From contig NZ_QLIR01000014.1 in the NCBI RefSeq assembly GCF_003428155.1, forward strand, positions 16,533-48,532: a stretch of 32,000 nucleotides of DNA. Reading direction: 5' to 3'. The notes beneath the pieces are model-generated. The model did not search any database and was not told the origin of the DNA. It saw only the letters and a program-made list of their open reading frames with translations. This DNA is from Fastidiosibacter lacustris (GTDB taxonomy: Bacteria > Pseudomonadota > Gammaproteobacteria > Francisellales > Francisellaceae). The position numbers and the translations under genes were made by a program. Of this stretch, positions 3,546 to 20,376 are shown piece after piece (position 1 is the first letter of the stretch; the number at the start of each line of letters is the position of its first letter).

Positions 3546-4064
3546 ATGCCAAAATATAACGTTCTTATTCGATTACTGCATACACTTGTTGCGCTAGGAG
3601 TGATTTTACAAGTTATCGTTGGCTTTTTCTTTGATGATATGTTCAGTAAGCTTAACCCTGCATTTTTCATGACCATCCATAAATCTATAGGTTTAAGTTT
3701 ATTCTTACTTATTGTGTTTTTAATCATTACGCGTATATTTTCCAATAAAATTCCCTATCCCAAAGAAATGCCCGTCATCCAGCGGATGCTTGCTAAATTG
3801 GTGCACTGGGGATTGTATTTGTGTATATTACTCATGTCATTGTCAGGTTTTATAGCATCACAACTCTTTCATAGCAAATGGCAATATTTTTATTGGTTTG
3901 ATATCCCCAATTTCTTACCGAAAAATCCTGGGCTTGGACGTGAGATTTTTAGCTGGCACCCTTTTATTGCTATGATTTTATTGGTGCTTGTCATTTTGCA
4001 CATATTAGCTGCACTTTCCCATCAGTTTATTGCTAAAGATAAAATCATGCAAAAAATGTTTTAA
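3546..4064 (+). CDS. cytochrome b561 family protein (CybB-like)
   Basis: 172 aa, four TM segments with conserved His positions (LLHTLVALG, HKSIGLS, HWGLY, HILAALSHQF) typical of bacterial cytochrome b561. Confidence 0.75.
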   Translation: MPKYNVLIRLLHTLVALGVILQVIVGFFFDDMFSKLNPAFFMTIHKSIGLSLFLLIVFLIITRIFSNKIPYPKEMPVIQRMLAKLVHWGLYLCILLMSLSGFIASQLFHSKWQYFYWFDIPNFLPKNPGLGREIFSWHPFIAMILLVLVILHILAALSHQFIAKDKIMQKMF

Positions 4065-4627
4065 TCTCTTAAAACCTCGTTGCTAATAAGGTTGATAACG
4101 CGTGAAGGTTTTGCTGCAATAAAATTTTGTTGTGGATGAATATAATCTAGCTGATCACCAAAATAATGTTGTACCTTATCATAGGAAGTGGCAGGCGGTT
4201 GATTGGATAGATTTGCGCTTGTTGAGATAATCGCGCATCCTAGTGTTATTGTTAGCTCCTTAAGTAGTGGATGATCTGTTAAACGTACCGCAATCGTACC
4301 AAAATCACCAGTTAACCAACGGTATTCATGTTTCACTGGTACTACCCATGTCGTTGGTTTATCTTGTCTTTGACTGAGTATTTCTAGCTGTTTTTCATTG
4401 AGCTTTTCGGTATCTATTAACGCTAATAAATGTGAAATGTCACCAGATAATACAATAAATCCTTTCTTTAAATCGCGCTGTTTCAACGCTATAACTTTTT
4501 CAACAGCCGCTTTTTGAATAATACAACTTAAGCCATAAACAGATTCTGTTGGTAATCCTAACACTTTACCATTTTTAAGCATTACGGCTATCTGTGCTAG
4601 GGTTTTATAAAATTTTTCAGTGCCCAT
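4061..4627 (-). CDS. tsaC: L-threonylcarbamoyladenylate synthase TsaC/YrdC family
   Basis: From Met58 of the supplied ORF: MGTEKFYKTLAQIAVMLKNGKVLGLPTESVYGLSC...ISTSANLS is YrdC/Sua5-like. The upstream 57 codons look like non-coding promoter DNA. Confidence 0.75.
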   Translation of the reverse strand: MGTEKFYKTLAQIAVMLKNGKVLGLPTESVYGLSCIIQKAAVEKVIALKQRDLKKGFIVLSGDISHLLALIDTEKLNEKQLEILSQRQDKPTTWVVPVKHEYRWLTGDFGTIAVRLTDHPLLKELTITLGCAIISTSANLSNQPPATSYDKVQHYFGDQLDYIHPQQNFIAAKPSRVINLISNEVLRD

Positions 4628-4856: not shown

Positions 4857-5411
4857 ATGTTGGAAATGAAGGGCACAACAATTTTGTGTGTGCGCAGAGG
4901 CGACGAAGTTGTTGTTGGTGGAGATGGTCAGGCGACATTAGGTAACACAGTTGCTAAGGATAACATTATTAAAGTGAGAAGGCTAAGTAATGGTAAAGTA
5001 CTAACAGGTTTTGCTGGATCGACAGCAGATGCGTTTACCCTATTTGAAAAATTTGAACAGAAATTGGATTTTTATCAAGGCAATCTTGAACGAGCGTCGG
5101 TTGAAATGGTACGTGAATGGCGTTTGGATAGAATGATGAGTAAACTTGAGGCAATGATTATTGTCGCAGATGAAACAAAATCTTTACTGATCTCTGGTTC
5201 AGGAGACGTAATGGCTGCTGATGACAAAGGTATTTTGTCTATTGGTTCTGGTGCAGCATTTGCTAAAGCTGCAGCACATGCACTTGTTGATAATACAGAT
5301 TTACCAGCTTACGAAATTGTGAAAAAGAGTTTAAATATTGCAGCAGATATTTGTATTTATACCAATCATAATTTAACAATTGAAAAATTGCCTAATAAAG
5401 CAAAAACATAG
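4857..5411 (+). CDS. hslV: ATP-dependent protease subunit HslV
   Basis: [32 protein letters not shown]... carries the GTT active-site N-terminus and the GDGQ motif. The ATG at 4857 gives the usual short leader before Thr. A GTG at 4842 is also open. Confidence 0.9.
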
Positions 5412-5439
5412 TAATTTAAATTTTTAGAGGATAGAAGTT

Positions 5440-6789
5440 ATGTCGCAAATGACTCCAAAAGAAATTGTGAGTGAATTAGATCGATTTATTATCGGTCAAA
5501 AAGAGGCTAAGAAAGCAGTTGCCATTGCGCTTAGAAATCGTTGGCGCAGAATGCAGTTAGAAGAAGGGATGCGCCAAGAAGTGACACCCAAAAACATTTT
5601 AATGATTGGACCTACAGGGGTTGGGAAAACAGAAATTGCACGGCGCTTAGCAAGGCTTGCTAATGCTCCATTTATCAAAATTGAGGCGACAAAGTTTACT
5701 GAAGTAGGTTATGTTGGGAAAGACGTTGATTCTATTATACGGGATTTAGCAGATATTGCTATCAAGATGCTTCGTGAGCAAGAAAAAGCAAAAGTGGCGG
5801 TAAGAGCAGAAGAGCTTGCACGAGAGCGAATTTTGGATGCGCTATTGCCATCAGCAAGAGAAAGTAAAGTTGGCTTTGCCAACGAGCCAGTGGAAAGTGA
5901 TAAAAAAATTGAAAGCACTACAAGGCAGCTGTTTAGAAAAAAGCTAGAAGCAGGTGAGTTGAATGATAAAGAAATAGAAATAGAAATTGCAACACCTACA
6001 ATTGGTATGGAAATCATGGGACCTCCTGGCATGGAGGATATGACAAATCAACTACAAAGTATTTTTTCATCTATGGGAGGTGATCGTAAAACACGCAGGA
6101 AAGTCAAGGTTAAAGATGCGCTTAAATTATTGCAAGATGAAGAAGCTAGTAAGCTTGTTAATGAAGATGATGTTAAGCTTAAAGCGATTGAGGCTGTCGA
6201 GCAAAATGGTATTGTCTTTATTGATGAAATTGATAAAGTGTGTAGAAGATCAGATCAACGAGGTGCGGATGTTTCTCGTGAAGGTGTGCAGCGAGATTTA
6301 TTACCACTGGTTGAAGGTTCAACGGTGTCAACAAAATATGGTATGATTAAGACAGACCATATTCTGTTTATTGGTTCGGGTGCCTTTCATGTTGCAAAAC
6401 CTTCTGACTTGATTCCTGAATTACAAGGTCGGTTACCGATTCGTGTTGAGTTACGGTCATTAGAGGTTGAAGATTTTTTCCGAATCTTAACGGAGCCTGA
6501 TTATTCATTGATTAAACAGTACATTGCGCTGTTAGCCACAGAAGGAGTTGAAGTGAGATTTGAGCAAGAAGCAATTGCGCGTATTGCTGAGATTTCCTAT
6601 CGCGTCAATGAGGAGATAGAAAATATAGGAGCTAGACGCTTACATACTGTGCTTGAGCGTTTATTAGAAGAGATTTCGTTTGATGCTTCTGACCGTATGG
6701 AAAAAAATTTTGAGATTAACGCTAGTTATGTAGATGAGAAGCTTGGGGATCTGGTAAAAGATCGGGATTTAAGTCAATATATTTTGTAA
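5440..6789 (+). CDS. hslU: ATP-dependent protease ATPase subunit HslU
   Basis: [34 protein letters not shown], Walker [26 protein letters not shown] Walker B. Full-length at 449 aa. Confidence 0.95.
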
Positions 6790-9431: not shown

Positions 9432-9653
9432 ATGGCTTTATCAGTTAGATTATCAGATGAATTGGTGAAACAAGCGCAAAGTGTAAGCGCTGTTATGTAT
9501 CGCTCATGCGCAAAACAGATTGAGTACTGGGCAAGAATAGGGAAGATGGCAGAAGAGAATCCAGAACTAAGTTATGAATTTATTAGAGATACGTTAATTG
9601 CTAAGGCAGAATCTAATAATAATGATGTGAGCGATTATGAATTTGATAATTAA
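9432..9653 (+). CDS. ParD-like type II antitoxin
   Basis: 73 aa. MALSVRLSDELVKQAQSVSAVMYRSCAKQIEYWARIGKMAEENP matches the ParD_like antitoxin pattern (RLSDEL...QIEyWArIG). Confidence 0.6.
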   Translation: MALSVRLSDELVKQAQSVSAVMYRSCAKQIEYWARIGKMAEENPELSYEFIRDTLIAKAESNNNDVSDYEFDN

Positions 9654-9756
9654 ACAAACCAATAGCTTTAAAAAATCCATCAAAAAACTATCTAAACAAG
9701 ATAAATTTTAATTAGATGACGAAGACATATCTAAGTCATTAATACCGAATAGTTGA
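9637..9756 (+). pseudogene. decayed RelE/ParE-family toxin remnant
   Basis: The ATG overlaps the antitoxin end. MNLIIKQTNSFKKSIKKLSKQDKF then TAA (9709-9711). The same frame continues LDDEDISKSLIPNS then TGA. Only a toxin-type N-terminus (TxxFkKdlKKL) remains. Confidence 0.5.
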
Positions 9757-9995
9757 CCGTGTAAACTGGTGTTATGGTTGACTACCCACACTTTTAAAAC
9801 TACACATTCCTAGATGGATTTGTATTAAAAATTTACAGCTAAACCAAGCAATATGTGCCTTACTCAGTTTAAGTTTATATCTAAATGTATCATAATATAT
9901 CATACCGCCTTAAGCAGTGCCTAGGCTCGCTACCGAATAGCTGACTTTCCACCAGCGTGGCACTGTTTAATTAAGTGGATGCTTAGGAAGGTGAA

Positions 9996-11060
9996 ATGAA
10001 GCCAATAAAAGAACTTTTATCAATACCATCTGAACTATCTTATCATGAACTTTTAGAACGTTGGCGTGAGCCTTTGGAACTTTGGGGATTCTCAGATAAT
10101 AATGCAAAGGCTAAATATATCGCACAACTAATTAATAAGCACGGTTTAAAAGCATTCTTGACGCCATCTTACGATGGTAAAGAATACATATCAATTTCAA
10201 TTAAATTAGGCAGCCAGGCAATTAATTATAGCGAATTGAGCATTAAAATAATAAAACACGCGTTGAGCAATTTAGCGCTTGTAAAATCACTACCTGTTAA
10301 GGGGTATAAAATCAATAGGTTTAAATTTATCGAAAGTGAAGCATGGCGTAATTTGTTTTTGCGATCCATAACAACTGTTCTATTTCCCATTGATGACGAT
10401 ATTGTTGACAAAATTGGTAACAAAACGCGTGGCGAAATTCTCTCGATTATCTCAAATGGTACCTATTGCACGGTATTATTAAACCATCCTCTTGAACTAA
10501 AAACTGTGCTTGTTCAAGATTACAATGGTTATTTGCAGTTGCAAGTTGGTGATGTCGTGGGCGCTGATTATATTATAACTACATATAAATGGAAAGATGT
10601 CATGGACGATGATTGTATTGTAGCTATATACAAAGAGTTATGGAATCCTGTACTTCTTGAACCAAAGATTGAAGCACCTGTATTTAAAGAGTCTCAGTTA
10701 TATTTCAAGGGTGAAGACATTATAGCCTTTGAAGAAGCACAAATCAGGCAGAAAGAGAGTAACAAACGAGAAAACAATAATAAGGATAAGTCAAGCAAAG
10801 AAAAAGCACCAGAACCTACAAGCAATGGTGTCTTAAAGTGTGTTCAAAAACAACGAGAGTTAGCTTTGCAAACTGCCATAAATCTCGGGGCGATAAAAAA
10901 AAGCCATACAAAGGCAGAGATTCATAAAATATTAAAGCAAGCATCACCAGAGTTATTCACTATAGCAAGAACTACTTTTAATGACTTTTTTAAGAAGCAG
11001 CAGCTGTTTAACCTAAATTCTGGACGTAGAAGCATGGAAGACATAACCGAAAAATGCTAA
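9996..11060 (+). CDS. hypothetical protein (no recognisable domain), lysine-rich linker and alpha-helical C-terminus
   Basis: 354 aa ORF with SD AGGAAGGTG 12 nt upstream and a strong hairpin terminator downstream. Confidence 0.6.
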   Translation: MKPIKELLSIPSELSYHELLERWREPLELWGFSDNNAKAKYIAQLINKHGLKAFLTPSYDGKEYISISIKLGSQAINYSELSIKIIKHALSNLALVKSLPVKGYKINRFKFIESEAWRNLFLRSITTVLFPIDDDIVDKIGNKTRGEILSIISNGTYCTVLLNHPLELKTVLVQDYNGYLQLQVGDVVGADYIITTYKWKDVMDDDCIVAIYKELWNPVLLEPKIEAPVFKESQLYFKGEDIIAFEEAQIRQKESNKRENNNKDKSSKEKAPEPTSNGVLKCVQKQRELALQTAINLGAIKKSHTKAEIHKILKQASPELFTIARTTFNDFFKKQQLFNLNSGRRSMEDITEKC

Positions 11061-11120
11061 ATATAGAGTGACTTTCATTTTTTTTCAATATGACTGAAAC
11101 CCTGATTTAATAAGGATGTA

Positions 11121-11175
11121 AATATGGGGTGATTGGTCGACTACCCCATATTAGCCCCCTTTTTCTTTTCCTTTT
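11121..11175 (+). terminator. hairpin plus T-rich tract
   Basis: AATATGGGGT (11121-11130) pairs perfectly with ACCCCATATT (11143-11152). 12-nt loop, followed by CCCCCTTTTTCTTTTCCTTTTTT. Confidence 0.5.
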
Positions 11176-11195
11176 TTGTCTCTCATAATACACCC

Positions 11196-11217
11196 CAAGA
11201 CTTGGCGCCAAGTCTTG
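11196..11217. promoter_or_regulatory. perfect 22-nt palindrome CAAGACTTGGC|GCCAAGTCTTG upstream of alpA
   Basis: Read directly. Lies 42 nt upstream of the alpA ATG, just after a CATAAT hexamer (11184-11189). Confidence 0.45.
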
Positions 11218-11258
11218 TTAAATAGTGATTGTATAAAGTCTATTAAAAAGGGGAAACC

Positions 11259-11465
11259 ATGAATTTAAATATTATTAAATTACCGTTGGTGGTTGAAAAA
11301 ACAAGCCTTTCAACTGCATCCATATATCGATTAGCTAAAGTGGGTAAGTTTCCAGCTCCTGTAAAGCTAAGTGAGCGTTCAAGCGGCTGGCTTGAATCGG
11401 ATGTAAATCAATGGATTGATAATCGCATTAAAGCACGTGATGGTAAATTGAGTAAAGGGGTGTAG
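11259..11465 (+). CDS. alpA: AlpA-family phage/island transcriptional regulator (excisionase-like HTH)
   Basis: 68 aa. LPLVVEKTSLSTASIYRLAKVGKFPAPVKLSERSSGWLESDVNQWI is the canonical AlpA/Phage_AlpA signature. Confidence 0.85.
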   Translation: MNLNIIKLPLVVEKTSLSTASIYRLAKVGKFPAPVKLSERSSGWLESDVNQWIDNRIKARDGKLSKGV

Positions 11466-11467
11466 GC

Positions 11468-11749
11468 ATGTTAAGTAATGAAATTCAACTAAGTAAACGT
11501 CAATTAAGGACACTTGAAGAGTTGGCTTTAAAGGGTGAAGTGTCAAGGCTTGAGTTGAGTCGCTATGCGGGGTTAAATACACCTGAAACCATAAGCCAGT
11601 TACGTAAAAAGGGATGCATTATCCATATGGTTAGAAAACCCCGCGTTGACCATTATGGTGTGAAGGTTTACGCGGGGTTTTACAGCTTGGATAAAAGCCA
11701 GAAAGATGATGCTTGTAAGCTAGTAATTAAAAACAAGGAGGTGAAATGA
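11468..11749 (+). CDS. small winged-helix DNA-binding protein (island regulator, family not identified)
   Basis: 93 aa. RQLRTLEELALKGEVSRLELSRYAGLNTPETISQLRKKG is HTH-like. Tightly packed after alpA (2-nt gap). Confidence 0.55.
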   Translation: MLSNEIQLSKRQLRTLEELALKGEVSRLELSRYAGLNTPETISQLRKKGCIIHMVRKPRVDHYGVKVYAGFYSLDKSQKDDACKLVIKNKEVK

Positions 11750-12021
11750 TGATTGATAATAAGTTTAATCAAAAAGTAAAAGGAAATCACATTGGTGATT
11801 CCCTGTTTACTTCCCGCCCCACAATGTTATACTGCGCTCGTTCGGGCGTAGTAACCTGCAAAAACAAGCGTAATCATGCGATAAATGGTATCAATATATT
11901 TTCATCTTGGCTACTTGTTTTTCAAGTTGTCGGGTGGTGGCGTAAATACAATACCCGTTTCATTATGGGAAATAGCGCCAGCCTTACTTGTTTGAGGTTA
12001 CTAACCACCCGATTAATTTAG
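11746..12021 (+). CDS. possible leader ORF running through RNA element A1 (coding status doubtful)
   Basis: Very strong SD AAGGAGG (11735-11741) and an ATGA overlap with the previous gene argue for translation initiation. The product has no protein-like features, and the 3' third is the structured element. Confidence 0.25.
   Translation: MMIDNKFNQKVKGNHIGDSLFTSRPTMLYCARSGVVTCKNKRNHAINGINIFSSWLLVFQVVGWWRKYNTRFIMGNSASLTCLRLLTTRLI
11839..11868 (+). promoter_or_regulatory. module-1 leader box with bipartite target (a1 TAGTAACCT, b1 AAACAAG)
   Basis: CGTTCGGGCGTAGTAACC is homologous to 12252-12269. 11849-11857 is complementary to 11995-12003, and 11862-11868 is complementary to 11987-11993 of element A1. 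Confidence 0.55.
11930..12012 (+). ncRNA. structured RNA candidate A1 (c4/CI-like antisense immunity RNA, module 1)
   Basis: Perfect 9-bp closing helix TCGGGTGGT/ACCACCCGA. Internal hairpins GGCG...CGCC and CCTT-ACTTGTTT-GAGG. Paralogous to 12368-12449. The loop is complementary to flanking boxes. Confidence 0.55.
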
Positions 12022-12047
12022 TAATACAAAACAAGGAATCAAATTAT

Positions 12048-12485
12048 ATGAATAATCTAAACCGTATAACGCGGCGTTCGTATTCTCATACTGGTGTAGA
12101 AGTACAAAGCCCGCGCTATACAGTCACTCATGAACCAACTGATAAAACCAACGACATCAGTCAATGCAATTGTATATCAATAGCCCCGTCTTGGTTTTGT
12201 GCTTTTAATCTGTTAAGCTTGCGAATGTTGGTCGTAGAAAGCCAGCAAAAACGTTCGGGCTTAGAAACCCAGATACTACCAAAACGCGGAGCTTATCAAA
12301 CCGTTAAACTTGATATTCAAACGATTATATCTCATTTATGGCTAGTTATAGCTTCATGGTTTCATATAATCGGGTGGGCGCATCAATACAACACCTTTAT
12401 GGGAATAATGCGCGCTGTTTCGTTTTGGGCAGTTTCTAACCACCCGATTTTTAAGGATAACCAAAACGGAGCTAAACCATGGTAG
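12048..12485 (+). CDS. possible 145-aa ORF (icd-like coupling ORF?) overlapping RNA element A2, coding status uncertain
   Basis: ATG at 12048 with SD AAGGA. The end overlaps the start of the next gene (ATGGTAG). The frame is open for 165 codons, which is unusual for AT-rich non-coding DNA. The sequence is not protein-family-like and contains element A2. Confidence 0.3.
   Translation: MNNLNRITRRSYSHTGVEVQSPRYTVTHEPTDKTNDISQCNCISIAPSWFCAFNLLSLRMLVVESQQKRSGLETQILPKRGAYQTVKLDIQTIISHLWLVIASWFHIIGWAHQYNTFMGIMRAVSFWAVSNHPIFKDNQNGAKPW
12252..12286 (+). promoter_or_regulatory. module-2 leader box with bipartite target (a1 TTAGAAAC, b1 CCAAAACG)
   Basis: CGTTCGGGCTTAGAAACC is homologous to 11839-11856. 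12261-12268 is complementary to 12432-12439, and 12279-12286 is complementary to 12421-12428 of element A2. Confidence 0.55.
12368..12449 (+). ncRNA. structured RNA candidate A2 (c4/CI-like antisense immunity RNA, module 2)
   Basis: Perfect 10-bp closing helix AATCGGGTGG/CCACCCGATT. Hairpins GCGCA...TGCGC and CTG-(TTTCGTTTTGGG)-CAG. Shares AATACAA-ACC...TATGGGAA with A1. Loop CGTTTTGG is complementary to CCAAAACG at 12279 and 12461. Confidence 0.55.
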
Positions 12486-13066
12486 TAAAAACAATTATTT
12501 TCAATGACAAAAACATCACTATCCATTATATAAATGGTGATTACTATTTATCCATCGTTAAAATTATGGATGATTTAAACTTAGACTTTAACGACACCGT
12601 AAAAGCCTTAATGAAATCGTCATATTTACATATAACCGCCGATGACGTGACTATTAAATTATCTGAATTAAACAACTGGCTTAATACGATGGATAAAAGC
12701 AAACTAGATAATGGTTCTTTACTTTTTTTAGCTGAGTATCAATCGTCATTACTGAATATTATTAAGCATGAAATTAACCAACTATCACAAGCCTCTAAGC
12801 CAAAGCCTAAATATAATTTTCATATTTTCCAAGGTTCAGTAAGTACCAGAAAGCATAATGAATCAATTTATCTATCCGCAATGGATTTGTGTGAACATCT
12901 AGGAGTCAATAAAGAAGAAAATATCAATAGACTTATTAATGATGAAGATTTTAATGGCTTTTTACATTACTCAATCAATGGCTTATATATCAGTGAAATA
13001 ATTGCGCAATGGTGGATTGGCAAGCTTACTGGTACACATAATCAAGTAAAGGGGGTTAGGCTATGA
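12479..13066 (+). CDS. tandem Bro-N/KilA-N-like domain protein (antirepressor-type candidate)
   Basis: 195 aa with two similar halves: IIFNDKNITIHYINGDYYLSIVKIMDDLNL and FHIFQGSVSTRKHNESIYLSAMDLCEHLGV. These resemble the F-x-F...W/Y-x-S/A-x-D-L/V...LG pattern of Bro-N/antirepressor N-domains. Confidence 0.5.
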   Translation: MVVKTIIFNDKNITIHYINGDYYLSIVKIMDDLNLDFNDTVKALMKSSYLHITADDVTIKLSELNNWLNTMDKSKLDNGSLLFLAEYQSSLLNIIKHEINQLSQASKPKPKYNFHIFQGSVSTRKHNESIYLSAMDLCEHLGVNKEENINRLINDEDFNGFLHYSINGLYISEIIAQWWIGKLTGTHNQVKGVRL

Positions 13067-13968
13067 GGCTTGAAGAATATATGCTTAAATGCGGCTATAC
13101 GCCCCCAAGTGTAATTAATCCAGATGGCTACAATCGATACCCCGCTCCAGACAAAGGAAAGGGTAATAAAGCAGGCTGGCTGATTGTTATTAGTGAAGAG
13201 TGTGCCGTTTTTGGTGATTGGGTGAGTCAAAGCAAATACGTATGGCATGCCAATATGGATAAGATGAGTCATACGGAAAGAACAGCAGCCTATGAGTGCG
13301 CTATACACCAGGCAGAAAGATTGAAGCTTGAGCTGCAACAGCAGCAAGAAGAAGTAGCACATCAATGCCAGTTCATTTTGAATAACTCAGAGAAGGCGCA
13401 AGATAGTCATGCTTATTTAGTCAAAAAAAGCGTTATTTCTTTTGGGCTTCATTGGGCTCCACACTTACAAGGCGTGGATAATGCGTTAATTGTCCCTATT
13501 TATGGTTTTGATGATGGTGCCAATACATTACTGCAATCGCTGCAAATAATCTCGCCTCAAGGAGACAAACGCTTTTTTAAGGGTGGACGAAAGAAGGCGG
13601 GATTCTATCCCTTGCAGGTAAGAGAAGGCAAAGATGTAAGGATATTAATTGCGGAGGGCTATGCAACAGCAGCAAGCTTGGCAATGGTTCAGCCAAACGA
13701 TAGCGTTTATTGCGCTTTTGACGCGGGTAATTTAAAAGATGTTGCTTTATCCCTACGCAAGTACCACCCATTTAGTAAAATCGTTATATGCGCCGACAAT
13801 GACCGCTTTAATGACAAAAACACCGGTGTGCTTGCTGCAAGAGACGCGGCTAACTCTGCCGATGCTGTTTGTATCGTCCCTAGGTTTGAAACGGAAGAAA
13901 CAGGCACAGATTGGAATGATTGGCTAGTGCTAAGGGGATATATAGGAACAAAGGAGGTGCAATCATGA
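13063..13968 (+). CDS. TOPRIM DNA primase of the P4-alpha / TraC / Sog type
   Basis: ILIAEGYATAASLA is the EGYATA primase motif. The TOPRIM acidic motif ICADNDRFN follows, then a TDWNDW tail. Confidence 0.8.
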   Translation: MRLEEYMLKCGYTPPSVINPDGYNRYPAPDKGKGNKAGWLIVISEECAVFGDWVSQSKYVWHANMDKMSHTERTAAYECAIHQAERLKLELQQQQEEVAHQCQFILNNSEKAQDSHAYLVKKSVISFGLHWAPHLQGVDNALIVPIYGFDDGANTLLQSLQIISPQGDKRFFKGGRKKAGFYPLQVREGKDVRILIAEGYATAASLAMVQPNDSVYCAFDAGNLKDVALSLRKYHPFSKIVICADNDRFNDKNTGVLAARDAANSADAVCIVPRFETEETGTDWNDWLVLRGYIGTKEVQS

Positions 13969-14939
13969 ACCAGTTTAATGAACAAAGCAATCAAGCCAGT
14001 GCAAGCGACCTTGTAACAAATGAGCTTAAAGAACAGGGGATAATAACGCCGCAAATTGTACCAATTAAATACGGTGATTTTAAAAAACTAAACCTTAAAA
14101 GCGCGGAGTTCCTTTTATATCCAATCATTGAAGAACAGGGGTTAGCCATGATTTACGCTATGCGTGGGGTTGGCAAAACTCATGTAAGCTTAAATATTGC
14201 CTACGCCGTGGCAACGGGTGGAAGCTTTTTAAAATGGAAAGCCAGGCGCCCAGCTAAGGTCTTATTTATTGATGGGGAAATGCCAGCATATGCACTGCAT
14301 GAACGGTTAAAGGTAATTGACCAAGGTAGAGGGTTTGCAGATGACAATTTAAATATTATCACCCCCGATTTGTTAAAGGATAAAATCCCGCCAGACTTGG
14401 CAACGTCTACAGGGTGGAAGGCTGTAGAAGCTGCTGTGAATGATGTGGATTTAATCATTGTTGATAATATCAGCACACTTTGCCGCAATGGTAGAGACAA
14501 TGAGGCAGATAGCTGGATACCTGTTCAACATTGGGCACTTAAATGGCGTGCGCAAGGCAAAGCAATATTATTTATCCATCACTCCAATAAAAACGGCGAC
14601 CAAAGGGGAACTAGTAAAAAAGAGGATGTGCTTAGCACAGTTATAAAGCTAGAACATGAAGAAGGTTATAGTGCAGAAGACGGCGCTGCCTTTAGGGTAA
14701 GCCATACCAAGTCAAGATTGTTTCATGGTGAGGACGCCAAACCGTTTAAAGCAGCACTAACAAGCAATGGCTGGGTATATGAAGATTGCGAAGCAGGAAT
14801 CAAAGAAGAGGTGTGGGCACTCCATAATGATGGGATGAAGCAAGTTGATATTGCCAGAGAGCTTGGGCTTGAAAAATATCAAGTGACCAGAATCATTCAA
14901 AAGCATAAAAAATGTGATGGAATTTTAAGGACCGTATAA
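13965..14939 (+). CDS. RepA-like / AAA_25 RecA-fold ATPase (replicative helicase candidate) with C-terminal HTH
   Basis: Walker A MRGVGKTHVS, Walker B LIIVDNISTL, HHSNKNGDQRGTSKKED sensor region, C-terminal VDIARELGLEKYQVTRIIQK. The ATG at 13965 has SD AAGGAGG and overlaps the primase stop (ATGA). Confidence 0.8.
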   Translation: MNQFNEQSNQASASDLVTNELKEQGIITPQIVPIKYGDFKKLNLKSAEFLLYPIIEEQGLAMIYAMRGVGKTHVSLNIAYAVATGGSFLKWKARRPAKVLFIDGEMPAYALHERLKVIDQGRGFADDNLNIITPDLLKDKIPPDLATSTGWKAVEAAVNDVDLIIVDNISTLCRNGRDNEADSWIPVQHWALKWRAQGKAILFIHHSNKNGDQRGTSKKEDVLSTVIKLEHEEGYSAEDGAAFRVSHTKSRLFHGEDAKPFKAALTSNGWVYEDCEAGIKEEVWALHNDGMKQVDIARELGLEKYQVTRIIQKHKKCDGILRTV

Positions 14940-15013
14940 TGGAGTGTTTGATTAAATTATATGCTAAATTTTGCCATGCTTTTTGTGAAATAATTAAAGT
15001 AACTTTCGCAATA

Positions 15014-15212
15014 GTTGCAGAGTTGCAGTCCCTTAGGGCGTTGCAACTTGCAACTTTTCAAAAAAGCGTGCAACTTTTCTTGCAACTGTATCAGGTAAAA
15101 AACATGCCTGAAACCCTTATTTTAAAAGGAAGTTGCAACTGCAACTTTTATTGCAACGAACTGCAACTGAATGATATTTGTGCTGCAACTTTTAGGGGTA
15201 AAAAAGTTGCAG
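15014..15212 (+). repeat. iteron array: TGCAAC x9 and inverse GTTGCA x5 (candidate origin of replication)
   Basis: TGCAAC at 15042, 15049, 15069, 15081, 15134, 15140, 15152, 15162, 15184. GTTGCA at 15014, 15022, 15040, 15132, 15206. An A/T-rich stretch at 15090-15130 separates two clusters, directly downstream of the primase/ATPase genes. Confidence 0.7.
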
Positions 15213-15274
15213 TAATATTTCAATAATATGATCGTAAAATCTACACATTTTGCCATGGTAGGAGTGACAAAAAA

Positions 15275-15586
15275 ATGATTAAATCACACGTCAAAAATGA
15301 CGAGCAAAAAAACATCAATTCTGGAGGTGAAATCCTCGGAGATGTATCCGAAAAAACAACACCAAAAACACTGGTGGATTTAGTGCCATACGGAATAACT
15401 GTATTAGATGCTGCTTATGTTAAGCAACTGCTTGTTCATACCACTTGGTTTTCAAGGTATGAAGTTATCGAAAGGTATTGCCAAGTATGGGTAGATGAAT
15501 ATCACGCAACTGACTGCCTAATAAAGCGCGCGAACTTAGCCAGGCGCAAAGCTAACACTTGGATACGTCAATATTTAAATCAATAA
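15275..15586 (+). CDS. hypothetical protein
   Basis: 103 aa ORF with SD GGTAGGAG upstream. No family recognised. Confidence 0.5.
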   Translation: MIKSHVKNDEQKNINSGGEILGDVSEKTTPKTLVDLVPYGITVLDAAYVKQLLVHTTWFSRYEVIERYCQVWVDEYHATDCLIKRANLARRKANTWIRQYLNQ

Positions 15587-15728
15587 TGGAAAGGAGGTTT
15601 TAAAATGAATATCAAAAAATCACTCGTTTTTCTGGCGATACTTAAATTGCACCAAATCTAATGATTTTATAATTAAATAACCCGTTGAGAAAATCTACGT
15701 AATGTTGTTTATCTCCTAAGATCTTTTT

Positions 15729-16028
15729 TTATTGGGATAGCGCAAGCAAAACATGTTTTGGATCTTTTGATATTGCTTTTAGCAAAGCTTTAGCAGGTCC
15801 AGTAGGCTCTCTACGCCCTTGCTCCCAATTTCTTAGGGTTGGCAACTTCACATTAATCAATCTGGAGAATTTTGCCTGAGATAGCCCAGTTTTATTGCGA
15901 ATCTCTTTTACTTTCATAGCATTTATTGTGAATTCTCGCGATGGAGAGCGCTCTCCATCTATGATTTCATTCATTTGTTGCATGCTTTCAACCAATCGAT
16001 TAAAAAGTTTATTTTCCATCACTGCCAC
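15729..16028 (-). CDS. HigA-2-like XRE antitoxin
   Basis: MENKLFNRLVESMQQMNEIIDGERSPSREF...IRNKTGLSQAKFSRLINVKLPTLRNWEQGRREPTGPAKALL matches HigA-2-type antitoxins as I recall them from Vibrio. Overlaps the toxin gene by 10 nt. Confidence 0.8.
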   Translation of the reverse strand: MAVMENKLFNRLVESMQQMNEIIDGERSPSREFTINAMKVKEIRNKTGLSQAKFSRLINVKLPTLRNWEQGRREPTGPAKALLKAISKDPKHVLLALSQ

Positions 16029-16339
16029 CTTTCATTTAACTGCCTTAATATTTTCTTTTGTTCTGGTGTCAAGTCATCTTGTTTGCCTTTTTGATAAATC
16101 AATAAAAGTCTTATCTGTGAATCAGGTAATACGTAATAGTATATAACTCTAACACCACCTTGTTTACCTTTACCTTTTGCTGACCACCTGACTTTTCTTA
16201 ATCCACCAGTTTGTTGTATCACATCACCAATCAGAGGGTTTTCAGCCAAATAGGACTGAAATTCCGCATATTCATCATCACTAAGTAATGCCTTTACATC
16301 TTCAGTAAAAATATCCGTTTCAATAAAGATCAATTTCAT
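16019..16339 (-). CDS. HigB-2-like RelE/ParE superfamily toxin
   Basis: MKLIFIETDIFTEDVKALLSDDEYAEFQSYLAENPLIGDVIQQTGGLRKVRWSAKGKGKQGGVRVIYYY is the HigB-2 (DUF1044-type) signature. The supplied ORF extends to a GTG at 16357. Confidence 0.8.
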   Translation of the reverse strand: MKLIFIETDIFTEDVKALLSDDEYAEFQSYLAENPLIGDVIQQTGGLRKVRWSAKGKGKQGGVRVIYYYVLPDSQIRLLLIYQKGKQDDLTPEQKKILRQLNERWQ

Positions 16340-16771
16340 ACATCTAGCATTATCCACTTGTTATCGAGTTTATATCACGCTTAAAAGTAAGTCAATGGCG
16401 TATTAAATATTTATCATATAAAATCATTTAATGTGGGTCGAGAAATATTTATAGAGTCAATATAACTTTGATGCTATAGCATCCATAGCTATGCTTTACC
16501 ATGGCACTTTAGATATGTAACAGCTGAAATCCAGCGGTTAGAATATGATCAAAATTTAACTCCTGAAATAAACGAGTTAAAATACTCTCAAGCTTGACTC
16601 CTGAATTTTCAGGAACGCGCGTAATGCCTACCTGTTATCAATTGTAATGACTGTGACTCCAGAGGTATGAGCTGCTTGCTGTCGCGTGACAATGTTTCCT
16701 TTGGCAACTGTCGGCATTTCCCCCTAATTATTATCCCCCGAACCTAAACCCTACAACTCAAAATTGCACAC

Positions 16772-16831
16772 AGAAAGTATTTTTTGCGCGTCATACACCC
16801 GCTTGCTTTCAACCGTTCAAAAGTACCTTTT
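16772..16831 (-). repeat. left copy of 60-nt inverted repeat
   Basis: The reverse complement is 49/60 identical to 20019-20078 (AAAAGGTACTT...AAAGCAAGCGGGTGT...CGCGCAAAAAA.ACTTTCT). Starts at the higA stop codon. Confidence 0.7.
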
Positions 16832-17274
16832 TAATGTATTGATTTACTGTTATTGATGTCATCCCAAGAAATAAAAGCATCAGCACTTAAATTAAAGCGC
16901 TTACTAAGCTTGGTAACTTGCTCTAAGGTTAGCTTGCGGTGACCGTTTAGAAATTTAGAAACATTTCCTTGATTGCCAAAGATATTTATAAGGTCTTTTT
17001 GCTTTAGGTTATATTCTGCCATTAAAAACTTAACCAATTTATTGGGTGTACTTAGTTCTGAAAGCTGTGGCAAGTGCATGTTTTCATAATCAGCAATATG
17101 TTGTTCTATTATCTCTAGAACAGGTAGATATTCGTGCTGAGTGTTATCTCCTATAAAGTCAGCCAACTCTATAGATAAATTTATCAGCTGGCTTAATTCG
17201 GTACTATTTTCTGGAGGTTTAAACCATGGTGCAACTATGCTAAGCGCCTGCTGTGTTTTTTTTGCTTCTAACAT
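16831..17274 (-). CDS. higA: HigA-family antitoxin (E. coli HigA/YgjM-like)
   Basis: 147 aa. The C-terminal HTH LMAEYNLKQKDLINIFGNQGNVSKFLNGHRKLTLEQVTKLSKRFNLSADAFI parallels E. coli HigA. Confidence 0.75.
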   Translation of the reverse strand: MLEAKKTQQALSIVAPWFKPPENSTELSQLINLSIELADFIGDNTQHEYLPVLEIIEQHIADYENMHLPQLSELSTPNKLVKFLMAEYNLKQKDLINIFGNQGNVSKFLNGHRKLTLEQVTKLSKRFNLSADAFISWDDINNSKSIH

Positions 17275-17276
17275 CG

Positions 17277-17468
17277 TTATATGTCTCCATTTACTAATTT
17301 CATCTGGTTTACACGTTTACTATATTCTGTATGAGTCCAAATTGCTCTGGTATATACTTTCTGCCTGTTATAATGAATAGTAGCAATCAGTCTGTAGGCA
17401 TTGCCACCAATATTAAAAACCGTATATCTGCCTACTGAATCAACTGTTTTGTAACTGCTACGGTTGAA
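17277..17468 (-). pseudogene. higB: 5'-truncated HigB-family toxin remnant
   Basis: Minus-strand translation FNRSSYKTVDSVGRYTVFNIGGNAYRLIATIHYNRQKVYTRAIWTHTEYSKRVNQMKLVNGDI* equals the C-terminal two thirds of HigB. An in-frame TAG lies just upstream, and there is no start codon. Confidence 0.7.
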
Positions 17469-17540
17469 AAGATTGCAAGTCTAAACTACAATTTGTTTTG
17501 AGTTAGAAGCTATTTCATATAATTAACGGTAAATAATAAC

Positions 17541-18674
17541 ATGAAGAGTCAAGCACTAGTTAAAACAGATAATATCGTTTGGGCTAGATTACAAGCTGGG
17601 CTAAGTCGCTTTGAATTAGCAAAGAAATTATCTGTTAAAGAAAACAGAATAGAGGATTGGGAAAAAGGTAAAAGTTTTCCAACATTCAAGCAAGCTCAAA
17701 AACTAGCTGATTCTACTCATATTCCTTTTGGTTACTTGTATTTATCTAACCTACCTAATCAGGATATTAATATTCCCGACCTTCGTACAATGGCGGGGAA
17801 AAAGATTCTGGAACCATCAAGAGAGCTGAAAGATGTAGTAGCTAAAGTAGAGTTGAAACAAGAGTGGTATCGAGATTATTTACTGTCAACAGGAGCACAA
17901 GAGTTAAGCTTTGTAGGCTCATTCAGTGCTAAAGATAGTGTTTTAAGTATTGTGCAAGATATGCGGAAACATATAGGTGTTAAATCTTCAAATGCACTAA
18001 GTTGGGACGGTTATGAGCGTCAGCTAACAAAAAATATTGAATCTATAGGTGTTTTGGTCATGCGTAGTGGTGTAGTTGGCAATAATACGCATAGAGTATT
18101 AGATCCCCAAGAGTTTAGAGGGTTTGCAATAAGCGATAAAATAGCACCTGTTATTTTTATTAACGGAGCAGATGCGGCAACTGCCCGGTTATTTACTTTG
18201 ATTCATGAACTTGCACACATATGGATAGGAAGCAGCGGAGTTTCTAATTTAGAGAATGATTCTTCAGAAGAAGAGAAATTTTGTAACTCTGTGGCAGGGG
18301 AATTTTTAGTTCCTCATCAAGATTTTATAGAACGTTGGAAAGCCAGTCCTAATAATGACGAAAAAATAAAAGAACTCGCTCGATATTATCAAGTAAGTGT
18401 AATGGTTATTATGATAAGAGCGTATCATTGTAAACTAATCGATTGGCAACAGTATTCGGAATATCGTGCTTTGGAAAAGCAGAAAGCTAAATCTAAAGTC
18501 AAAAATACCAATGGAGGTGATTTTTACAAAACCTCCAAAATAAAGAATGGTCTTGTGTTTTCAAGTACTGTCATATCTGAAGCTTTAAGTGGAAGAATGT
18601 TACTAAGAGATGCTGGTAAGCTGTTAGATATCAAACCAGAAAGATTTAAACGCTTTGCGATGGAATTAGAATAA
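17541..18674 (+). CDS. XRE-HTH + ImmA/IrrE (M78) zinc-metallopeptidase fusion protein
   Basis: N-terminal HTH LQAGLSRFELAKKLSVKENRIEDWEKGKSFPTFKQAQKLA. HEXXH motif in FTLIHELAHIW with a downstream E(EKFCNSVAGEFLVP), typical of the ImmA/IrrE domain. Confidence 0.8.
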   Translation: MKSQALVKTDNIVWARLQAGLSRFELAKKLSVKENRIEDWEKGKSFPTFKQAQKLADSTHIPFGYLYLSNLPNQDINIPDLRTMAGKKILEPSRELKDVVAKVELKQEWYRDYLLSTGAQELSFVGSFSAKDSVLSIVQDMRKHIGVKSSNALSWDGYERQLTKNIESIGVLVMRSGVVGNNTHRVLDPQEFRGFAISDKIAPVIFINGADAATARLFTLIHELAHIWIGSSGVSNLENDSSEEEKFCNSVAGEFLVPHQDFIERWKASPNNDEKIKELARYYQVSVMVIMIRAYHCKLIDWQQYSEYRALEKQKAKSKVKNTNGGDFYKTSKIKNGLVFSSTVISEALSGRMLLRDAGKLLDIKPERFKRFAMELE

Positions 18675-19174
18675 TGGATTATTTGCTCGACTCAAATACT
18701 TTTATTGAAGCTAAAAACAAGTATTATAGACCAACTATATTTTGTGAATATTGGCGTTGGCTATCCGATTCATACAAAGAGTTTGCGGTTGCAAGCATTG
18801 AGAGTGTTAAGGATGAATTGAAAGAGGGTAATGATTATTTAAGTGAATGGGCGGCAACAAACAATTTTTTCTTTTTGCCAGTAAGTGACATCGAGACACA
18901 GAGTAACTATATTCAAATAATTGATTCTATATACAAATCAGGATATAAGCGAGCGGCATGTGATGATTTTATCGAAGGAGCAGATCCATGGTTAATTGCA
19001 AAAGCAATGACATTAAAAGCTACTGTCGTGACACATGAAAGGCTTAACCTAAACTCAAAGAGAAAAGTTCTTATACCTAATATGTGTAGGGAATTTCAGG
19101 TTAGTTATATAGATACGTACGACCTATTGGAAACCTTGGAAGTAAAATTCTCTGTGGTGAAACGAGACGAATGA
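18674..19174 (+). CDS. DUF4411-family (PIN-like nuclease fold) protein
   Basis: MDYLLDSNTFIEAKNKYYRPTIFCEYWRWL is the characteristic DUF4411 N-terminus. The start overlaps the upstream stop (TAATG). Confidence 0.7.
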   Translation: MDYLLDSNTFIEAKNKYYRPTIFCEYWRWLSDSYKEFAVASIESVKDELKEGNDYLSEWAATNNFFFLPVSDIETQSNYIQIIDSIYKSGYKRAACDDFIEGADPWLIAKAMTLKATVVTHERLNLNSKRKVLIPNMCREFQVSYIDTYDLLETLEVKFSVVKRDE

Positions 19175-19335
19175 CCTTTACCATCTATCACATTTAAGTG
19201 AAGCTGCCCTTTACATCTTGTCAGCGACAAGAACCATTTCAGGCTTACTGTATGACAGATTAGTCGTACCCACAAGGTAAAACTAAACTATTTTTATGTC
19301 TAAGCGCTTACCTAGAGCGCCTAATGCTTGTTCAA

Positions 19336-19683
19336 TCAGCGATAGCGCAAATTAAACAGTCTGTCTAAATTTGATGGCGCAATCCCTATTTTATTGGCAA
19401 TATCTGTCTTCTTAAGATTTGATGCAAGCCATTCGTTATAAAGATAAACTTTGGCAGCAAGTGCAGCAGGTAATGTAACAAAATCTGTGCCAATATTCTG
19501 AGGCACGGGAATTGGCTTTTTGTCTTCAATGTAGAAATCAAAAGCTGAGATAAGTGCATCAACAGCTTGGGTTTGTAAATCAGTTAAGCTATCAACGGTA
19601 GTAGCAGCCTCGGGCACATCAGGGAAGGTGACTAGGTATTCGCCGTTATCGTCTTTTTGAATATTCATGTTGTATTTCATCAC
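19336..19683 (-). CDS. hicB: HicB-family antitoxin, probably frameshifted near the 3' end
   Basis: N-terminal HicB fold (MMKYNMNIQKDDNGEYLVTFPDVPEAATTVDS) plus HTH. The expected C-terminus LSLIEQALGALGKRLDIKIV* is present in another frame, extending to 19283. Confidence 0.65.
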   Translation of the reverse strand: MMKYNMNIQKDDNGEYLVTFPDVPEAATTVDSLTDLQTQAVDALISAFDFYIEDKKPIPVPQNIGTDFVTLPAALAAKVYLYNEWLASNLKKTDIANKIGIAPSNLDRLFNLRYR

Positions 19684-19693
19684 ACACCTCGCT

Positions 19694-19801
19694 TTATTTT
19701 AGATTCAAATCTTTTTTAATCTTCGCCACTAAACCTTTACCAATTTCTTTAGCACCATGGTCAGGGAAAACGGGATTCATTTTTTGAACAGCTATGTATT
19801 C
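19694..19801 (-). pseudogene. hicA: 5'-truncated HicA toxin remnant
   Basis: Minus-strand ...MNPVFPDHGAKEIGKGLVAKIKKDLNLK* equals the HicA C-terminus only (vtvP-H-..gtl..Ikk). The N-terminal dsRBD part is missing, with a TAG upstream. Confidence 0.6.
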
Positions 19802-20004
19802 CTACTCCAAGGGAATATCACGGGCAAGACATTAAAAGCATTCGATTACGCGAGCACATGAGTCAACCAGTTTTTGCCAGATGCCTAAATGTCAGTACAG
19901 AGGTTTTAAAAAAATGGGAGCAGGGAGTGAGAAAGCCTAGCGGTTCAGCATTAAAGCTATTAAATTTGATTGATAAAAATGGCATCAATATTCTACTGGT
20001 CTAG
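19801..20004 (+). pseudogene. 5'-truncated HigA-2-like antitoxin fragment
   Basis: PTPREYHGQDIKSIRLREHMSQPVFARCLNVSTEVLKKWEQGVRKPSGSALKLLNLIDKNG aligns with the C-terminal HTH half of the 15729-16028 product. No N-terminus and no cognate toxin. Confidence 0.6.
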
Positions 20005-20018
20005 TTAATAGGCATCTG

Positions 20019-20078
20019 AAAAGGTACTTCCAGAGGTTTAAAAGCAAGCGGGTGTGATACGCGCAAAAAACACTTTCT
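20019..20078 (+). repeat. right copy of 60-nt inverted repeat
   Basis: 49/60 identical to the reverse complement of 16772-16831. Confidence 0.7.
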
Positions 20079-20353
20079 CGCTACCAGTAAAAATACATTT
20101 CGTTTCGTTTTTGACACATATGTAAATGGAAAAAGTGATAAAAAAACGAAATCAATAGCGAAAAAATCATGAAGTAGGTTAAGCCCCAGACTTGGGGAGT
20201 GGCAGAATCCAGTCTTTCCCTTGTTTGTTTACATATTGGTCACACGCCAATAATGGCGGATGGGGAAAAAACAATGTGTTAGGGTATAACATAGCAATGC
20301 GGTGTATGGTACAAATTTGAACCTTGGTCAATTAAACCAGAGGCACATTGAGC

Positions 20354-20376
20354 TAAGTGTCCCCTGTAATGTCCCC
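20354..20376 (+). repeat. right terminal direct repeat (attR candidate) TAAGTGTCCCCTGTAATGTCCCC
   Basis: Direct copy of 8076-8098. Sits about 30 nt beyond the stop of the convergent gene 20406-21365. Confidence 0.6.

Follow-up and report, generated by a model that had tools for sequence, protein, structure and literature searches.

Two tandem sRNA-Xcc1-class RNA modules of c4 type in the probable immunity region of a small integrative island of Fastidiosibacter lacustris

In satellite phage P4, the immunity RNA CI lies inside the eta open reading frame (ORF), the translation of which prevents immunity-specific termination (PMC10111431). CI, which arises by processing of an untranslated transcript, base-pairs with the sequences seqA and seqC (PMC4825925). 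The first ORF controlled by CI, kil, is toxic (PMC10111431), as is icd, the first ORF controlled by the c4 RNA of phage-plasmid P1 (P1 annotation). The locus considered here lies in a stretch of 32,000 nucleotides of Fastidiosibacter lacustris DNA (RefSeq assembly GCF_003428155.1, contig NZ_QLIR01000014.1, positions 16,533 to 48,532 of the forward strand), termed the window, and all positions refer to it. Judged from its sequence, the region around 11,468 to 12,485 is probably the RNA-immunity control region of a small integrative island resembling P4 and the phage-inducible chromosomal islands, in which two c4-type antisense RNA modules, both of the sRNA-Xcc1 class, stand in tandem. The two RNAs most likely keep the antirepressor-like and replication genes of the island silent.

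The sRNA-Xcc1 class (Rfam RF02221) is treated in the literature as a virulence-linked, trans-acting small RNA (PMC2996969, PMC12189769). Five copies (sXF1-5) with ~380-nt spacing are present in Xylella fastidiosa Temecula1, and C4, isrK, and Xcc1 occur within 400 nt in Xylella strain De Donno (PMC12189769). In APSE phages, an Xcc1 RNA lies upstream of an ORF6N gene (10.1101/2020.03.17.996009), and in Xanthomonas integron cassettes sRNA-Xcc1 is found directly upstream of the symE toxin gene (10.1101/2025.06.18.660453). Rfam places the class in no clan, while C4 and c4-a1b1 belong to CL00128. Chen et al. reportedly described it in 2011 as an integron sRNA of Xanthomonas campestris. No description of a c4-type target logic, with antisense segments a' and b', was found for sRNA-Xcc1 in the searchable literature, nor was a paper interpreting its tandem arrays or linking it to c4 (subscription journals were outside the search).

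The two candidate RNAs of the window are as follows.

11928-12014, + strand: RNA1 (A1), c4-type RNA assigned to the sRNA-Xcc1 class by RF02221 and fold; b' is the P3 loop CUUGUUU (11987-11993) and a' is AGGUUACUA (11995-12003).
12368-12449, + strand: RNA2 (A2), assigned in the same way; b' is the P3 loop CGUUUUGG (12421-12428) and a' is GUUUCUAA (12432-12439).

Minimum-free-energy folds and the Rfam structure lines give both RNAs a three-way junction composed of a closing helix (P1), two directly adjacent hairpins (P2 and P3), and a single-stranded 3' junction. A1 (11930-12012) folds with a 9-bp closing helix round the two hairpins at -32.0 kcal/mol (z -4.0 against shuffles), and A2 (12368-12449) with a 10-bp closing helix at -28.5 kcal/mol (z -3.4). 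On the minus strand, A1 folds no better than shuffles (z -1.0); A2 also folds well there (z -3.1), mostly owing to its palindromic closing helix. The modules align through the conserved blocks CGTTCGGGC.TAG.AACC, TCGGGTGG, AATACAA.ACC, GGGAA, and CTAACCACCCGATT, and both RNAs share the 3' block GTT(A/T)CTAACCACCCGATT. The conserved 13-nt 3' block is translated in different frames of the overlying ORFs, as ..LTTRLI in one and ..SNHPIF in the other. The original prediction, made from the letters of the window, had described two RNAs with c4/CI topology, the shared AATACAA.ACC...GGGAA and 3' blocks, and the frame difference. Its strings, coordinates, helices, and complementarities are all exact, the shared blocks are real, and the topology is borne out by the folds and by covariation in the family.

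A scan of the window at the Rfam gathering thresholds returned tRNAs only, with no sRNA-Xcc1 match. In a permissive scan (1-kb search), RF02221 aligned over its full length (1-87/87) with RNA1 at 11928-12022 (47.0 bits, E 5e-7) and with RNA2 at 12368-12457 (50.0 bits, E 1e-7), just under its gathering score of 53 bits. The models for C4 (RF01695, gathering score 45), c4-a1b1 (RF03163, 46.7), and isrK (RF01394, 50) gave no match at E<=10 within 11600-12600. As a positive control, the same scan on P1 and P4 found C4 at c4 (68.8 bits) and CI (74.9 bits) and matched c4-a1b1 and isrK in the leaders; Xcc1 was not matched. Both window RNAs have the sRNA-Xcc1 secondary structure and its conserved P2 motif AAUACAAnACC...GGRAAU. 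Their extended P2 carries an inner CCC/GGG helix and an 8-nt/3-nt internal loop (AAUACAA.A/GAA), and so departs from the P2 of C4, which is described as a short hairpin capped in most cases by a stable tetraloop (Weinberg 2010 supplement). This internal loop (AAUACAAnACC/GGRAAU; 11946-11975 and 12385-12408) is the most conserved part of the class, exceeding the antisense loops. A custom covariance model, R1, matches the window only at A1 (65.1 bits) and A2 (61.4 bits), with E around 1e-12, scores that are partly by construction because its training set comprised 24 distinct IMG/VR relatives and both window copies. Its full-length matches are confined to the + strand, the minus strand giving only a 17.7-bit echo of the closing helix. 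By sequence, RNA1 and RNA2 are divergent members of the sRNA-Xcc1 class just under its cut-off and not members of Rfam C4, one of the two models by which the original prediction had proposed to recognize them.

The family as a whole reveals how such RNAs recognize their targets. A pattern built from the window RNAs retrieved 87 IMG/VR stretches, and R1 found 89 copies in the retrieved loci. MAFFT with RNAalifold gave only P1 and pieces of P2; the structure was set by hand and the sequences were realigned with the covariance model. Among 37 distinct aligned sequences, 94% of cells are paired and 16 of the 22 pairs have changed on both sides (0/500 shuffles; 35-46% paired in slid controls), a result somewhat favored by the fitting of the alignment to the model. 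Rfam, checked on seven relative loci, passes 11 of 12 Xcc1 matches at the RF02221 cut-off (56-73 bits).

The P3 loop varies freely across the family (CAUAUGUG, CUUAACUG, CUUUGAAG, CUUAUUUG, and others). Among 31 distinct RNAs, its 7-8-nt complement lies nearly always ~72-78 nt upstream and again ~31 nt downstream on GGAGG. When the longest perfect complement of the loop or junction was compared between an RNA's own flanks and those of all others, the mean length was 7.7 vs 4.8 nt for loop and upstream flank, 6.8 vs 4.4 nt for loop and downstream flank, 6.5 vs 4.7 nt for junction and upstream flank, and 5.3 vs 4.6 nt for junction and downstream flank. By inspection, the arms of the a1 hairpin also co-vary among family leaders (GUGG/CCAC, GAGG/CCUC, AAGG/CCUU, GCCGC/GCGGC), and the leader box noticed in the original prediction proves to be this hairpin. 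Because the loop changes together with its upstream and ribosome-binding-site (RBS) complements across the 31 RNAs, the class appears to have the target logic of c4 and CI. A c4/CI-like mechanism is thus well supported by comparative evidence, and the box-loop covariation first noticed between the two window modules is strong across the wider family.

In the window, the complements of the two RNAs occupy five sites, which lie in two leaders and on the RBSs of ORF91, ORF145, and a gene starting at 12479.

11721-11741, + strand: site S0, TAGTAA (a-type) and AAACAAGGAGG (b-type), exact complements of RNA1 covering the Shine-Dalgarno sequence of ORF91 (duplex -14.8 kcal/mol with RNA1, -9.2 with RNA2).
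11843-11868, + strand: leader 1, a1 hairpin CGGG-CGUAGUAA-CCUG (a1 = 11849-11857) and then b1 AAACAAG (11862-11868), by exact matches.
12019-12037, + strand: site S2, the a2/b2 of module 1, TAGTAA..AAACAAGGA on the RBS of ORF145 (ATG 12048), by exact matches and shuffles.
12256-12286, + strand: leader 2, a1 hairpin GGG-CUUAGAAA-CCC (a1 = 12261-12268) and then b1 CCAAAACG (12279-12286), by exact matches.
12461-12471, + strand: b2 of module 2, CCAAAACGGAG on the Shine-Dalgarno sequence of the gene starting at 12479, without an a2 partner (b-segment duplex with the RNA2 loop -13.3 kcal/mol, 10 bp).

The sequence TAGTAACCT has a single + strand copy in the window, and CCAAAACG occurs solely at 12279 and 12461. 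AAACAAG is commoner, with 11 + strand copies, three of which (11731, 11862, 12029) are inside 11731-12029. When an a-site followed by a b-site within 30 nt was scored against an RNA's own junction and loop, the observed score was reached by 1 of 5000 dinucleotide shuffles in leader 1, by 1 of 5000 in leader 2, and by 3 of 5000 downstream of A1. Downstream of A2 there is the b box alone, as an exact 8-mer (107/5000 shuffles) or as 10 bp with G.U over the Shine-Dalgarno sequence. The target sites are predicted to be unstructured, and the leaders fold no better than shuffles. The leaders lack the first hairpin of the c4-a1b1 motif but have the second, whose 8-nt loop holds a1 and which b1 follows.

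Segment-wise duplex energies separate the two RNAs. Leader 1 pairs with RNA1 at -19.0 kcal/mol and with RNA2 at -6.8, and S2 at -14.0 and -9.8, respectively. The preference is reversed in leader 2 (-9.6 with RNA1, -20.0 with RNA2) and at the RBS of the gene at 12479 (-9.0 and -18.9). Overall, cognate pairs range from -14 to -20 kcal/mol and non-cognate pairs from -7 to -10, so that the two specificities, which had been proposed to differ, are predicted to be mutually orthogonal. Whole-window RNAduplex with the full P3 hairpin as query was non-discriminating, as it opens stems and allows bulges, and was replaced by the exact-match, segment-wise duplex, and shuffle tests. No further target of RNA1 was found within the window.

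Both modules are embedded in a chain of small ORFs that runs from an alpA-family gene to the replication genes.

11259-11465, + strand: alpA-family regulator, heading the coupled chain (Pfam Phage_AlpA, E 2.8e-16; named AlpA family regulator by NCBI).
11468-11749, + strand: ORF93, weakly winged-helix-like, with a stop that overlaps the start of ORF91 (ATGA).
11746-12021, + strand: ORF91 (WP_116964342.1), spanning the promoter-like site, leader 1, and RNA1; proposed eta-like read-through ORF.
11806-11833, + strand: promoter-like site TTTACT-16-TG-n-TATACT with an extended -10, a consensus match only.
12048-12485, + strand: ORF145 (WP_116964343.1), spanning leader 2 and RNA2; its stop overlaps the next start (ATGGTAG); proposed kil/icd-like coupling ORF.
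12479-13066, + strand: 195-aa gene with distant similarity to P22_AR_N (Bro-network, antirepressor-like), first of the replication operon.
13063-13968, + strand: Toprim primase (Pfam and PHROG matches), presumed controlled gene.
13920-14939, + strand: AAA_25 helicase (Pfam and PHROG matches), presumed controlled gene.

From alpA to the primase gene, successive stops and starts overlap and the ORFs tile the region, the primase start overlapping the stop of the preceding gene. The site at 11806-11833 is the sole + strand promoter-like site in 11000-12700. It lies inside ORF91 and is predicted to start transcription where leader 1 begins. NCBI lists ORF91 and ORF145 as hypothetical proteins; each is the sole member of its 90%-identity cluster and matches no Pfam, PHROG, or NCBIfam family; ORF145 has no homologue among 5.8 billion proteins. 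The frame from 11976 to 12485 is nevertheless open for 169 codons, a length reached by 4 of 5000 shuffles. By analogy with P4, the two ORFs may be selected to stay open and not for their protein sequence, the act of translation itself serving as it does for eta and kil. ORF91 is likened to eta and ORF145 to kil or icd because P4 CI lies in an ORF whose translation prevents termination and is itself made from an untranslated transcript. The earlier argument for selection at the nucleic-acid level over the protein level holds in that the frames differ and ORF homologues are lacking, but the ORFs, being coupled and open beyond chance, are not irrelevant.

Within ORF93, a perfect GC-rich hairpin AAAACCCCGCG..CGCGGGGUUUU (11635-11682; -30.1 kcal/mol, z -5.9) is followed by UUUUAC. 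It lies ~125 nt upstream of the promoter-like site and resembles a terminator, although the ORF93 frame runs through it, and may contribute to translation-dependent control. At its foot, TTAGAAAACC (11631-11641) resembles the a1 box of module 2, TTAGAAACC, plus one extra A, maybe by chance.

The 195-aa protein scores 30.0 bits against Pfam P22_AR_N, where the cut-off is 30.7, and resembles a genuine P22_AR_N antirepressor, that of IMG/VR locus L021, with E 2e-5 over its first 95 residues. No further homologue was found among the 5.8 billion proteins. The gene was originally called Bro-N-like; its relationship to P22_AR_N is only distant.

The wider gene order is five tRNA genes, integrase, a ParD-like gene, a 354-aa ORF, alpA, ORF93, the RNA region, the 195-aa gene, the Toprim primase, and the AAA_25 helicase. 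The core of a P4-like satellite is thus present by Pfam and PHROG: an integrase beside a tRNA gene, an alpA/vis homologue, and primase-helicase. Helper-manipulation genes of the psu, sid, delta, or epsilon type had no Pfam or PHROG match among the ORFs of 9432-27299, a search of limited sensitivity across undefined island boundaries. The description of the island as P4-like therefore applies to its integration, regulatory, and replication core. Its ends are undefined because the window yielded no att repeat of the tRNA-Leu 3' end. The int-alpA RNA (RF02996) is absent from the window. Accessory genes include the ParD-like antitoxin gene adjoining the integrase (9432-9653), an MqsA-like helix-turn-helix (HTH) gene with a RelE-like gene on the minus strand (15729-16357), and an ImmA/IrrE M78 peptidase-HTH gene followed by DUF4411 (17541-19174).

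Distant relatives of the primase are found in four Massilia genomes and one Herbaspirillum, in islands that adjoin a tRNA or tmRNA gene and carry int. Each of these islands (L003, L005, L006, L007, L017; ~5000-5700) has one canonical C4 RNA 300-900 nt upstream of the primase gene, and an isrK-type leader is present in L007 and, more weakly, in L017. In L007, the one island of the five in which alpA was read, the order is alpA, promoter-like site, a1b1 with terminator, C4, b2 box on a Shine-Dalgarno sequence, two small coupled ORFs, and the primase-helicase gene. The two Xcc1 modules of the window therefore occupy the slot of a P4-type immunity module, since the distant relatives hold isrK-leader and C4 elements there, upstream of the primase. 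In L006 and L016, int-alpA RNA (RF02996) is present.

The following mechanism would fit the locus; transcription of the RNAs, their processing, repression, and termination are inferred from sequence. RNA1 and RNA2 would form three-way junctions, with b' exposed in the loop of P3 and a' along its 3' strand and the junction. RNA1 would pair with leader 1, through the a1 hairpin loop and b1, and with the two a+b sites on the RBSs of ORF91 and ORF145. RNA2 would pair with leader 2 and, at the head of the primase-helicase operon, with the Shine-Dalgarno sequence of the antirepressor-like gene. The site at 11806-11833, acting as a constitutive promoter in ORF91, would drive an untranslated transcript that is processed to release RNA1 and, where read-through occurs, RNA2. 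RNA1 would block translation of ORF145 and leave untranslated RNA prone to Rho-dependent termination before the replication genes, as for c4/icd in P1 and CI/kil in P4. A transcript that escapes would carry RNA2, by which the next start site would be blocked. Derepression may come through transcription from the alpA promoter: coupled translation of alpA, ORF93, ORF91, ORF145, the antirepressor-like gene, and primase would cross the RNA modules and prevent pairing and termination, as eta translation does in P4. Two-layer control of the replication operon is plausible on these grounds.

Several observations weigh against this reading. Both RNAs score below the curated RF02221 cut-off, and the C4 model fails to match them. 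No promoter-like site was found ahead of leader 2 in the scan. Downstream of A2 no a-type (a2) site exists; each module has its own a1/b1 leader and RBS-overlapping b box, as had been claimed, but the full set of boxes is confined to module 1. The leaders lack the GC-rich intrinsic terminator seen after b1 in most family members, nearly all of which carry b1-CGG..CCGC..GCGG-UUUUUUAUGCC, and no terminator-like site of the isrK type was found on the + strand of the region. The antirepressor assignment of the 195-aa protein is borderline, and Rho dependence and the role of ORF translation are argued by analogy only. No close homologue of the island was found: the primase search of genome contigs gave only relatives of 30-37% identity, viral contigs gave 0 matches to the leader-plus-P1 pattern and 0 to the 195-aa protein, metagenome contigs gave one unrelated contig (L105) with the RNA pattern, and an exact-protein look-up of contigs gave nothing. 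The covariation consequently belongs to the family and to the two paralogous modules, not to orthologous loci. Finally, the upstream modules in L021, L099, and Escherichia coli, where antA is truncated, resemble orphans or recombination debris, and module 1 need not, for this reason, be an evolved second layer.

As to the terminator, the window leaders (11869-11929 and 12287-12367) retain only a U-rich ..AUGGC tail from which the GC stem is gone. The missing stem points either to Rho-dependent termination or to loss of the terminator step in an AT-rich host.

The tandem layout, of which the original prediction knew no description for P4-like satellites, is already widespread in prophages, as is the RNA type, and modules with separate specificities occur in many of them. 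IMG/VR prophages hold two to four copies of sRNA-Xcc1, and eight IMG/VR loci have two copies ~535 nt apart. In E. coli, a two-module block is present at >=80% coverage in 76 genomes, each RNA having its own a1/b1 and a2/b2 boxes of different sequence and each preceding an antA. The first antA, between the modules, is a truncated pseudogene (L106, NZ_CP060061.1, 2719-2985), and the NCBI pipeline PGAP annotates no noncoding RNA there; a truncated gene in this position suggests that arrays grow by insertion or recombination of whole modules. L021 has three tandem modules before one P22_AR_N antirepressor, each with its own promoter-like site and terminator. L043 carries isrK, C4, Xcc1, and Xcc1 consecutively, and L019 and L099 have two copies each. 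In L021, a 2.1-kb block comprising a lipoprotein-like ORF, the three modules, and the antirepressor gene is flanked by Type I-F CRISPR-like 28-nt repeats with a 60-nt period (Rfam CRISPR-DR4; 1684-1771 and 3925-4072). Distinctive of the window are two orthogonal modules in series, with no recognizable gene between them, inside coupled homologue-less ORFs and before an antirepressor-like/primase/helicase operon of a minimal island.

These arrays bear on the possibility, rather unlikely, that only module 2 is a working cis-regulator, module 1 being a recombination leftover or an orphan that acts in trans, for example on the antirepressor mRNA of a helper or competing prophage (hetero-immunity). 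Two of the three L021 modules have a leader but no downstream RBS target or gene, the two L099 modules have no downstream gene, and the gene between the E. coli modules is a pseudogene. RNA1 and RNA2 are 75% identical, neither being closer to the other than to unrelated family members, and in-situ duplication is not demonstrated; a recent one is unsupported. Yet RNA1 has three cognate a+b sites in cis, of which S0 and S2 lie exactly on the RBSs of ORFs coupled to the operon. Its structure is intact, it stands directly behind the sole promoter-like site, and the window holds no other target for it.

The modules could also be antitoxin-like RNAs that silence toxic small ORFs, with ORF145 a Kil-, Icd-, or SymE-like toxin in an addiction or abortive-infection module, which is improbable. 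The a2/b2 site of RNA1 covers the ORF145 RBS, kil of P4 (PMC10111431) and icd of P1 (P1 annotation) are toxic first ORFs under CI and c4, and sRNA-Xcc1 stands directly upstream of symE in the integron cassettes (10.1101/2025.06.18.660453). On the other side, ORF145 has neither homologue nor domain match, and two thirds of it are taken up by leader 2 and RNA2. The target of RNA2 is the antirepressor-like gene heading the replication operon, and related islands have a P4-type C4 module in the same slot. Toxin silencing would in any case overlap with immunity control instead of excluding it.

It is very improbable that ORF91 and ORF145 are ordinary protein genes, as NCBI annotates them, with incidental RNA-like features. 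Their hypothetical-protein annotation, the 169-codon frame open beyond chance, and the Shine-Dalgarno-like sequences and start/stop overlaps with neighbors in both are countered by the lack of an ORF145 homologue and of a family match for either ORF, by the conserved 13-nt block in different frames, and by covariance matches of E around 1e-12 with family-wide compensatory changes, unexpected from coding sequence. That the inverted repeats act as DNA, whether in replication (origin or iteron), in recombination, or in the binding of a protein, can be all but dismissed: they adjoin the primase and helicase genes, the pair TCGGGTGG...CCACCCGA is palindromic, and the A2 minus strand folds well, but pairs are kept through G.U and compensatory changes, full-length model matches (bar the closing-helix echo) are on the + strand only, the loops complement same-strand RBSs, and the A1 minus strand is not stably folded.

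Family-wide loop-box covariation links sRNA-Xcc1, treated in work on plant pathogens as a virulence-associated trans-acting sRNA, to the immunity mechanism of P1 c4 and P4 CI. This alters the reading of the many RNAs annotated as sRNA-Xcc1 in Xanthomonas, Xylella, APSE phages, Haemophilus, Aeromonas, and E. coli prophages. In related int-alpA-primase islands, c4-type and Xcc1-type RNAs fill the same regulatory slot. The diverged side-by-side modules offer a compact natural example of orthogonal RNA-target specificities, and the homologue-less open ORFs suggest that small satellites may generally follow the P4 principle, whereby termination depends on whether the immunity region is translated. 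A bolder proposal, made tentatively, is that sRNA-Xcc1 RNAs are generally programmable c4-type immunity RNAs and not virulence sRNAs, and that their arrays are orthogonal locks. Two in series with coupled ORFs might then form a two-key, translation-gated antitermination switch, by which the replication operon would open only once translation from the alpA promoter had crossed both RNA genes. RNA1 might also act in trans, recognizing antirepressor mRNA made by a helper or rival prophage.

Among described systems, IsrK/STnc1160/anrP of Salmonella Gifsy-1 resembles the locus in that a leader and a processed downstream RNA control a small ORF coupled to an antirepressor-type gene (PMC4825925). IsrK itself differs, being an a1b1-plus-terminator element and a trans activator whose model does not match the window. 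With sRNA-Xcc1 (RF02221) the window RNAs share a full-length structural alignment, the same helices, and the invariant AAUACAA.ACC...GGGAA, while their scores of 50 and 47 bits lie under the cut-off of 53. The tandem prophage arrays (E. coli antA; L019, L021, L024, L043, L099; Xylella) are similar in having two to five copies on one strand, 200-540 nt apart (PMC12189769). They differ in that the E. coli RNAs each precede their own antA, whereas no gene of recognizable function lies between the window modules; in that the L021 modules each have a promoter-like site and terminator, whereas the sole scanned promoter-like site of the window precedes leader 1; and in that ORFs overlie both modules in the window.

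P4 immunity (seqA, CI/seqB, seqC) is similar in that an RNA governs replication genes in an int/alpA/primase element, that this RNA is encoded within an ORF which starts ahead of an internal constitutive promoter and shows coupling to an alpA homologue (PMC10111431), and that it is thought to arise by processing of an untranslated leader transcript (PMC4825925). Unlike P4, the window has RNAs of the sRNA-Xcc1 class instead of C4, two modules with two specificities, and an antirepressor-like gene between the RNAs and the primase gene; no isrK/seqA-type terminator and no psu, sid, delta, or epsilon genes were found.

The immI region of P1/P7 (C4 RF01695 with c4-a1b1 RF03163) belongs to a phage-plasmid and not to a small integrative island. 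Its c4 RNA is cut out of the operon transcript by RNase P and represses ant by blocking translation, with polarity. The immI region has one module where the window has two, and the window lacks its terminator hairpin after b1. The closing helix P1 of the window RNAs measures 9-10 bp compared with about 17 in C4, and their P2 is extended with the conserved internal loop AAUACAA.ACC/GGGAAU where C4 and CI have a plain tetraloop hairpin. The structure lines of C4 and Xcc1 nonetheless describe one topology: a closing helix, P2, an adjacent P3, and a 6-7-nt 3' junction. The annotated a2/b2 partners of P1 assign b' to the loop of P3 and a' to the 3' junction of the three-way junction, and the window segments sit likewise. 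In both systems a1 is in the loop of a short hairpin, a layout that the family a1 hairpin shares with the second hairpin of the Weinberg c4-a1b1 motif, and b2 is on the Shine-Dalgarno sequence of the first ORF. The P1/P4 layout recognized in the original prediction is thereby supported: the P1 annotation has the same order of a1-b1, RNA, a2-b2/Shine-Dalgarno, small coupled ORF, and antirepressor (icd, ant), and the distant relatives hold a C4 module, with an isrK leader in L007 and L017, at the same position.

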